Shown here in pieces: positions 18,452-19,480 of a stretch of 19,480 nt of DNA (the stretch's first letter is position 1; each line of letters starts with the position of its first letter). The stretch is taken from the IMG/VR virus record IMGVR_UViG_2648501130_000004. One strand, written 5' to 3'. The position numbers and the translations under genes were made by a program. The notes under the pieces are model-generated. The model was given only the letters and a program-made list of their open reading frames with translations, made no database searches and was not told where the DNA came from. The DNA comes from a virus (lineage: Duplodnaviria; Heunggongvirae; Uroviricota; Caudoviricetes).

Positions 18452-18976
18452 ATCATTGGGATTATGCCGCAGCACGTCGTATGCAAGAACGTGCTGCGGT
18501 TGGATGCTATTTTTTCCCTGAAGCGGAAAACATTACTACAGTTATGACGATGAATTACAAGGGGTTAAATGATGCCACGGCATAGCGATATTGAAATAGC
18601 CTGGCATGCTTCAATACAGTGGGAACCGAATGGCCGGAAGACCGTCACCACACAGCGGTTTGTCTAGGGACTGAGCAATGTTCACAGGTACTGGGCTATG
18701 AGGGCTGTTAATAAACTGATAAATACGGCAACACCACTTAGGTCAGCGTAGCCGGTAAATCGAAAAGCAACTTCATCCAGGAATTTCTGTCAGTGTTGTT
18801 TGGAGATCTGATTGCCATGATGGATCAAGAGTTCTCTCTTATTGCCGGCTTGGTGTTGACTGAAAACTGGTATGATGCCGGGCGCATGTTGGCTAATCAT
18901 TGGGAATACTGCCGACACTGAACCATTCGCTCTTTTGATTTGGGGCGGTGCGACATAGCATGTAGGGAGTAAATCA

Positions 18977-19480
18977 ATGACTGAATTTCTTGGAAAACTG
19001 TTCGACAGGGTTTATACGGAGAAGGATTTCGGCATTAATGTCGCCATATTTGTCGCGGGACTTGCCGGAATGAGCTGTTATCTGATCCTTCACGACTATG
19101 TCCTGACGCTGTTCGCATTTATTATTCCATTCCCGATCGTCAAGATCATTGCCGGAGGATGGCATCAGCGTCTTCTTGCCCAGAAAGGAAAAGCTGCTTC
19201 AAGGCAGCAGTTGGCCGCACTTTATGATTCACTTACGGACAGTGAAAAAAACGTGGTACAGCACTTTGTAGCATTCGGCGGTGCTGTGATGACATGGGGA
19301 CAAATGAACCGGCTTGATGATCCGCAAACTGGTGTGGAGTCCCTGGTTCGGAAGGGATTACTGGGTACCTCCGTGTCCGTGGATGGAATGCACGAGACCT
19401 TCGAGCTGGATCTGACGCTTTTTGCCTTTGCTTACCGTTGGCGAGCCTCTCAGAATACGGACTCTGCGGCAGAGGGTTAA
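18977..19480 (+). CDS. Hypothetical membrane protein (167 aa) at the prophage end, function unknown
   Basis: AGGGAG RBS 8 nt upstream of the ATG; predicted transmembrane helices (INVAIFVAGLAGMSCYLIL and LTLFAFIIPFPIVKIIAGG); no recognised domain. Confidence 0.65.
   Translation: MTEFLGKLFDRVYTEKDFGINVAIFVAGLAGMSCYLILHDYVLTLFAFIIPFPIVKIIAGGWHQRLLAQKGKAASRQQLAALYDSLTDSEKNVVQHFVAFGGAVMTWGQMNRLDDPQTGVESLVRKGLLGTSVSVDGMHETFELDLTLFAFAYRWRASQNTDSAAEG

Follow-up and report, generated by a model that had tools for sequence, protein, structure and literature searches.

SieB is among the oldest known prophage exclusion functions, and to our knowledge its molecular mechanism has remained unexplained since the 1970s. 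In a lysogen, SieB aborts the lytic growth of heteroimmune phages; when P22-like phages superinfect, all macromolecular synthesis is halted in the middle of their lytic cycle, with the exception of P22 itself (PMC10883804). P22 additionally produces Esc, which is SieB minus its first 24 residues and acts as a SieB inhibitor, and the antisense RNA sas determines which of the two proteins is translated (PMC12197685). The esc gene is in the same frame as sieB and starts at codon 25. In both lambda and P22, sieB is flanked by the N/24 antiterminator gene on one side and ral on the other, is oriented against the early-left operon and has its own promoter in the lysogen. P22 SieA, lambda RexB and T4 Imm are also phage-expressed inner-membrane proteins that exclude other phages. 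Among these, SieA acts at DNA entry (PMC10883804).

Here we describe a phage gene for a 167-residue membrane protein which profile comparison identifies as a divergent relative of SieB.

A conserved gene at the end of a defective prophage

The DNA analysed (19 480 nucleotides; IMG/VR record IMGVR_UViG_2648501130_000004), referred to as the window, is 100% identical to positions 4017799–4037278 of Escherichia coli SWYH.B349aT (NZ_CP091773). It opens with a tyrosine integrase gene and closes at the stop codon of the gene for the 167-residue protein. The element is a defective lambdoid/e14-like prophage of about 21 kb, inserted between yjjG and prfC. Its first part consists of int and a gene of the AIPR family, early genes, a pair resembling cI and Cro, and genes for replication, followed by genes for RusA, a KilA-N protein and an antiterminator. 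Genes for lysis, head or tail shaft are missing, while remnants of tail-fibre and tail-fibre-assembly genes occur in both orientations. The features at the end of the window are the following.

18102..18320, plus strand: truncated Pin/Gin-type invertase of 72 residues (RefSeq ‘recombinase family protein’)
18348..18452, plus strand: 3′ fragment of a tail-fibre-assembly gene (RefSeq pseudogene)
18586..18655, plus strand: common lambdoid sequence found after tail-fibre-assembly genes, outside the cassette
18656..18963, plus strand: upstream spacer restricted to this lineage, presumed site of the promoter, not conserved in other genera
18964..18969, plus strand: Shine–Dalgarno sequence AGGGAG, 7 nt 5′ of the ATG
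18977..19480, plus strand: SieB-like gene, 167 codons plus stop (RefSeq WP_001378643.1, ‘hypothetical protein’)

The gene starts with ATG, and its TAA stop codon forms the final three bases of the window. We compared it by the Nei–Gojobori method with homologues from four other contexts, namely an enterobacterial genomic island (85% amino acid identity), Sodalis, Edwardsiella and two P2-like viral contigs. The resulting dN/dS values of 0.15–0.23 reflect a constraint far above that of a chance ORF, which shows that the 167-residue ORF is a real and conserved phage gene under purifying selection. Together with the start codon and the Shine–Dalgarno sequence, this bears out the description in the earlier note of a well-formed gene with a strong ribosome binding site. 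A strong bidirectional terminator, AAAAAACCCGGC-TTT-GCCGGGTTTTTT, is located 123 nt 3′ of the stop codon, outside the window. No mention of the accession WP_001378643 was found in the literature searched.

A 100% identical gene is present in phage Ayreon (MF807953, 23643..24146), which was the sole match in a tblastn search of phage records. Ayreon is a temperate phage from pond water that was isolated on E. coli K-12 (PMC5764929). According to blastn, the identity between Ayreon and the prophage runs from window position 18355 onward, extends 1.25 kb past the window across two small minus-strand genes and ends about 62 nt inside prfC, at the junction of prophage and chromosome. This places the attachment core within the 5′ end of prfC, so that in lysogens the prfC promoter and the first 20 or so codons are supplied by the phage. 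The earlier note had conceded that homology to a housekeeping membrane protein of the flanking chromosome would move the prophage boundary to a point before 18977. Both possibilities are excluded by the identical copy in a free temperate phage, inside the attachment boundary.

The gene had also been assigned to a slot after the invertase that carries accessory functions in related elements. The invertase remnant is real; it is followed first by the tail-fibre-assembly fragment and only further on by the gene for the 167-residue protein. In Ayreon, the same module is located behind the side tail fibre gene without any invertase, and the position after the invertase is therefore incidental.

The upstream region and the mobile unit

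The stretch from 18586 to 18976 had been taken for decayed sequence. It is true that the ORF listing contains nothing longer than 42 residues in this region, but the decay is not uniform. Positions 18586–18655 are found with 90–93% identity in about 3500 E. coli genomes as well as in 14 lambdoid phages. The rest (18656–18976) is lineage-specific, being present only in Ayreon and in 38 of 5426 complete E. coli genomes, all of which carry the gene; these 38 genomes also represent the frequency of the gene itself. The 42-residue ORF (18793..18921) lies within the spacer, is annotated in Ayreon and is known only from near-identical copies. A promoter scan of the spacer revealed nothing above chance and an Rfam search gave no match. 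The sequence TGgTATGAT at 18868–18876, read by eye, could be an extended −10 element.

Upon comparison across genera, DNA similarity sets in just 11–26 nt 5′ of the ATG and breaks off a little short of the stop codon. The mobile unit is thus the ORF with its ribosome binding site, and it is in this form alone that the SieB-like gene moves among phages and defence islands. Since the similarity starts so close to the ATG, a partner gene in 18586..18976 can be rejected, and comparison of the loci across genera found no conserved partner gene upstream or downstream of the homologues. A 75-residue ORF upstream of the Edwardsiella homologue, considered as a partner, has no counterpart in the window.

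On the minus strand, the promoter scan found no antisense promoter at the gene; a weak terminator-like hairpin of 5 bp (19193–19208) is the only feature seen there. With no Rfam match either, an antisense RNA resembling sas is unsupported. Thus neither the partner gene nor the antisense RNA that the earlier note had suggested looking for in this stretch was found by locus comparison or Rfam search.

Similarity to SieB

The protein had been described as not assignable to any family. This is correct at the level of library thresholds, as Pfam, NCBIfam and PADLOC gave no assignment above threshold. Pfam SieB (PF14163) matched with 13.4 bits (E = 0.06) and did not reach the gathering cutoff of 26 bits; phrog_1301, which comprises SieB/Esc and is labelled ‘superinfection exclusion; inhibits SieB’, matched with E = 0.01. 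NCBIfam returned nothing but a spurious enolase match. With PADLOC-DB v2, no family was found at E ≤ 1 and no known defence system model matched. A placement at the superfamily level could nevertheless be obtained from the relatives of the protein.

An indexed protein search identified about 25 close relatives from Enterobacterales, all annotated as ‘hypothetical’. A word-indexed search with a wide profile yielded almost no further relatives, and genome-contig scans found none within the limits of the search patterns, which fits a rare accessory gene. When a profile of 14 close homologues was compared with 1.84 billion representative proteins, 136 proteins were retrieved at E ≤ 1e-3, most of them 140–175 residues long and aligned over the full length. 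Pfam SieB is matched by nine of the 14 close homologues and, at E ≤ 0.01, by 30 of 74 full-length family members; no other Pfam family recurs. Most relatives score 16–25 bits against PF14163, compared with 101–108 bits for the SieB proteins of lambda, P22 and 673R7. One family member (P0054) passes the cutoff with 33.6 bits; it is 28% identical to the query and is retrieved by the family profile with E = 7e-23.

Profile–profile comparison by hhalign of the 74-sequence family with lambda-type SieB gave a probability of 79.8% over 133 colinear columns, and comparison with the combined P22, lambda and 673R7 sequences gave 95.8% (E = 7.9e-9) over 80 columns. The scores, 38.5 and 59.2, are well separated from those of the controls, in which reversed or column-shuffled SieB alignments scored at most 16.4 with a probability of at most 0.7%, so that the similarity goes beyond composition. 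The two alignments differ in coverage: that with lambda-type SieB spans the N-terminus, the hydrophobic region with the hairpin and the C-terminal domain, and that with the combined set covers the linker and the C-terminal domain.

Motifs are shared in the first and third helices of the C-terminal domain. The first helix contains S-L-T-x-x-E (S-L-T-D-S-E-K in the query, S-L-T-L-G-E-R in P22, N-L-T-E-E-Q in lambda), and the third contains S-L-x-K/R-G followed by a hydrophobic residue (V-E-S-L-V-R-K-G-L-L in the query, A-I-S-L-L-K-K-G-I-I in P22). Like SieB, and in colinear order, the protein begins with a short N-terminal segment, continues through two hydrophobic segments and a basic linker, and ends in a globular, soluble C-terminal domain; also like SieB (PF14163, PHROG 1301/6399) it is encoded by a lone gene of temperate phages. 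It is shorter, with 167 residues compared with 180–192, and identity to SieB is only about 20%, in line with the score below the Pfam cutoff. When the family profile was run against PDB sequences, nothing below E = 0.08 was found. We conclude from the sequence comparisons that the protein represents a separate, unannotated branch of the SieB superfamily at the fringe of PF14163.

The gene differs from canonical sieB in two further respects. Here and in Ayreon it is located behind tail-fibre genes and near the attachment site, not between N/24 and ral. Further, the position aligned with the Esc start at P22 codon 25 contains no start codon. The nearest Met is codon 32; this codon reads ATG in the E. 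coli/Raoultella clade alone, whereas three of the five lineages have GTT there, and an Esc-like internal start was rejected on this basis. Without an Esc/sas circuit, Ayreon must either tolerate its own protein naturally or control it in another way.

Predicted structure

An AlphaFold2 model calculated from the 74-sequence alignment has a pLDDT of 95.1 and a pTM of 0.75. In combination with hydropathy and conservation it suggests five segments.

18977..19030, plus strand: residues 1–18, N-terminal cytoplasmic helix (modelled helix 2–14) with near-invariant Y13-x-E15-x-D17
19031..19156, plus strand: residues 19–60, two-helix membrane hairpin with the three-residue turn H-D-Y (hydropathy; modelled helices 18–38 and 41–60)
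19157..19231, plus strand: residues 61–85, basic linker helix extending the second membrane helix (modelled helix 51–85)
19232..19411, plus strand: residues 86–145, acidic winged-helix domain
19412..19477, plus strand: residues 146–167, C-terminal helix (modelled helix 146–166) with a poorly conserved tail, variable in the alignment

Kyte–Doolittle peaks at residues 20–38 and 42–60 (approximately), with H-D-Y in between, coincide with the modelled helices and confirm the N-terminal pair of hydrophobic helices that had been noticed before. Basic residues flank the hairpin on both sides, and both termini are therefore predicted to be cytoplasmic. The linker, which aligns with the basic linker of SieB, has a net charge of +3, both in the query and as the median of the family, which fits a cytoplasmic location.

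Near-invariant residues of the family are Y13, E15, D17, Y35, D40, F52, E90, F97, G101, S122, L123 and R126. Over the 74 sequences, Y13 is conserved in 93%, E15 in 97% and D17 in 84%; Y35, D40 and F52 belong to the hairpin. Residues 1–18, containing R-V-Y-T-E-K, align with the N-terminus of lambda SieB (R-V-F-S-N-E) and correspond to the part which is absent from P22 Esc.

In the C-terminal domain, the model contains helices at 88–100, 107–110 and 116–125, a strand at 104–106 and wing strands at 129–133 and 140–144. The S-L-T-x-x-E-K helix, G101, the recognition-helix motif E-S-L-x-R-K-G and the two-strand wing are features of a winged helix. Structure comparison with the confident model revealed the three-helix core and beta-hairpin wing of an ArsR/MarR-like winged helix. 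There is no relationship to the ArsR, MarR or PadR proteins at the sequence level, and in contrast to these the domain is acidic (net charge −5 in the query, family median −4), is tethered to a membrane hairpin and lacks the dimerization helices of the MarR type. The acidic character suggests a protein ligand rather than DNA.

Foldseek searches against viral models gave no match at E ≤ 0.001 with either of two models and are not counted in support of SieB. With a first, poorer model, a 195-residue ORF from the N operon of P22, which is probably SieB, was found at rank 3 (E = 0.014); with the better model this ORF was not among the best 50 matches.

Genomic contexts of the homologues

In two P2-like viral contigs, the homologue is located between the tail-fibre-assembly and tail-sheath genes. 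We take this gap to be the Z/fun cargo site of P2. The papers on P2 hotspots that we consulted cover the old/tin locus and not the gap between tail-fibre and sheath genes. In an Edwardsiella prophage, the homologue is found on the int–xis side of the repressor gene, the only one in this position, and on the strand opposite to int, xis and an exonuclease VIII fragment. Lambda sieB is arranged alike. About 3.7 kb from the Edwardsiella gene there is a Septu-like pair (PtuA/PDC-M01). The homologue of the enterobacterial genomic island has a PDC-S31 candidate as its neighbour, with Gabija GajA/GajB at a distance of about 3.3 kb; that of Sodalis is a lone insertion after yicC. By residing in phage cargo slots and in the neighbourhood of defence systems, the gene behaves as defence-type cargo.

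Proposed function and alternative explanations

On balance, we favour the view that the gene encodes a divergent inner-membrane protein of the SieB superfamily, carried as self-contained cargo by temperate phages, and that a lysogen most likely uses it to abort the infection by other phages. The exclusion function is inferred from remote homology and genomic context: the hhalign probability of 95.8% to SieB, the family member P0054 above the Pfam cutoff and the defence and cargo contexts of the homologues all strengthen the suggestion in the earlier note of a superinfection-exclusion or abortive-infection candidate.

By analogy, the course of events might be as follows. In the lysogen, the SieB-like protein would be idle in the inner membrane. 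The acidic winged-helix domain might then detect a cytoplasmic product of an invading phage, upon which the hairpin and the N-terminal Y-x-E-x-D helix would disturb the membrane or its energy state. Synthesis would halt and the infected cell would yield no progeny. Both the sensing and the depolarization step are conjecture. In P22, loss of the part corresponding to the N-terminal helix converts SieB into an inhibitor of itself. RexB-type exclusion also ends with loss of the membrane potential. Otherwise, the systems differ: topologies are not the same in SieA, RexB and Imm, RexA/RexB has two components, and searches of Pfam, PHROG and PADLOC detected no sequence or profile similarity of the query to any of the three.

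Among the alternatives, it is conceivable, though unlikely, that the protein blocks the entry of DNA from related phages at the inner membrane, as do P22 SieA, T4 Imm and HK97 gp15. A small, prophage-borne protein with a predicted inner-membrane location would suit this role, in both Ayreon and the P2-like phages the gene adjoins the tail-fibre/host-range module, and SieA-type proteins are likewise lone membrane proteins (PMC10883804). The only family signal, however, is that to SieB, which is of the abortive type. Moreover, only the three-residue turn would be exposed to the periplasm, whereas two-thirds of the protein form a folded cytoplasmic domain that is better suited to intracellular sensing.

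The winged helix itself raises the question of a membrane-tethered regulator, which by DNA binding or by sequestration of a regulator would act on lysogeny or expression of the phage, or on lysogenic conversion. We regard this as rather improbable: the negative charge of the domain is unusual for a DNA-binding surface, neither operator-like repeats nor a target gene travel with the ORF, which is the conserved unit on its own, and the sequence kinship is with SieB and not with a regulator family.

A counter-defence role of the Esc type, by which the phage would be shielded from SieB exclusion by resident prophages, seems quite improbable. The label ‘inhibits SieB’ of phrog_1301, matched by the query, could be read in this way, and an N-terminally shortened SieB does inhibit SieB in P22 (PMC12197685). 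Yet it is this N-terminal segment, lacking in Esc, that is kept in full here with its conserved Y13, E15 and D17, and homologues also reside in non-phage islands near Gabija and PDC-S31, where counter-defence makes less sense. A toxin-like or holin-like protein without a role specific to phages, or else a selfish element of the addiction type, is the least probable explanation, as the small two-helix hydrophobic hairpin and the persistence of the gene in a remnant stripped of lysis and virion genes are offset by the absence of a conserved antitoxin-sized partner or antisense RNA, by a large conserved cytoplasmic domain unexpected for a simple pore-forming toxin and by a location outside any lysis cassette.

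For the preferred reading of an abortive, SieB-like protein, an extension to the entire branch may be considered. Tentatively, the approximately 136 mostly metagenomic representatives, which are outside PADLOC, may constitute a mobile one-gene abortive-infection cassette without Esc/sas self-immunity; we hold this to be possible, with less confidence than the reading for the gene itself.

Significance

As a divergent form of a known prophage exclusion protein, the gene will not surprise specialists; it provides a useful annotation and a tractable model for SieB. Should the gene have no phenotype, the outcome would be merely a better annotation of a ‘hypothetical protein’. The defective prophage remnant of 21 kb appears to have retained its defence cargo, with the SieB-like gene at one end and the AIPR gene at the other.

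If the assignment is true, defence-finder databases, which currently do not contain this family, would gain a new one. The compact 167-residue SieB relative from Ayreon, a cultivable phage of K-12, would be a clean system for the mechanism of SieB, with a confident model, near-invariant residues (Y13, E15, D17, E90, G101, S122, L123, R126) and no overlapping Esc/sas. The modelled combination of a membrane hairpin, an acidic winged-helix sensor and an essential Y-x-E-x-D helix would then be the first structural hypothesis for exclusion of the SieB type.

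Attachment site and neighbouring genes

Comparison of Ayreon, a free temperate Escherichia phage, with the lysogen chromosome showed that identity runs about 62 nt into the prfC gene and gives way to divergence thereafter. The shared part of prfC lies just past the window end (11666-11727 of L001, the AR434 comparison locus, and 13689-13750 of L004). Judged from this alignment, the 5' end of prfC is the integration site of phage Ayreon, and in lysogens the prfC promoter and the first ~20 codons are supplied by the phage. Two small genes, both also present in Ayreon, are located between the terminator and prfC:

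L019 (window plus flank) 22134-22678, 154-698 nt beyond the window end (-): two convergent genes of 42 and 120 aa

The product of the 120-aa gene gave a weak match to phrog_13858 and to nothing else.

Remains of an invertible tail-fibre segment

The region 15490-18452 of the window is what remains of an invertible tail-fibre segment. Besides a Pin-type invertase shortened to 72 aa, a 3' fragment of tfa and a tail-fibre fragment, it contains a pair of intact, oppositely oriented tail-fibre-assembly genes and a second tail-fibre fragment, which is inverted:

15966-16499 (+): tail-fibre-assembly gene, complete
16528-17055 (-): tail-fibre-assembly gene, complete
17059-18060 (-): tail-fibre fragment, inverted

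The switch is locked. A partial match to the Rfam sRNA 'IS009' (RF02111; 18330-18409, +; E 7.5e-9), whose 47.5 bits fall below the gathering score of 117, overlaps the point where the truncated invertase meets the 3' piece of tfa.

Differences between strains

The prophage is a remnant whose decay is ongoing and takes a different course in different strains. AR434 (L001) carries the same prophage without the RusA and KilA-N genes, both of which are present in the window's strain (window ~11400-12650). In the avian strain STE15 (NZ_CP095823.1, hit H17), an 'EAST1 family heat-stable enterotoxin' annotation upstream of the 167-aa gene occupies the place of the invertase remnant; this is presumably an IS-borne astA insertion.

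Putative defence genes

Together with a SieB-like homologue, the tail-fibre/sheath gap of the P2-like phage contig L016 holds a further gene:

L016 6850-8877 (-): 675-aa protein

No match to this protein was found in PHROG or PADLOC, and it is a candidate for a further unannotated cargo or defence gene. In the window, an AIPR-family (abortive-infection-type) gene follows the integrase immediately:

1481-3181 (+): AIPR-family gene, 566 aa

A putative defence gene is therefore retained at both ends of the prophage remnant.
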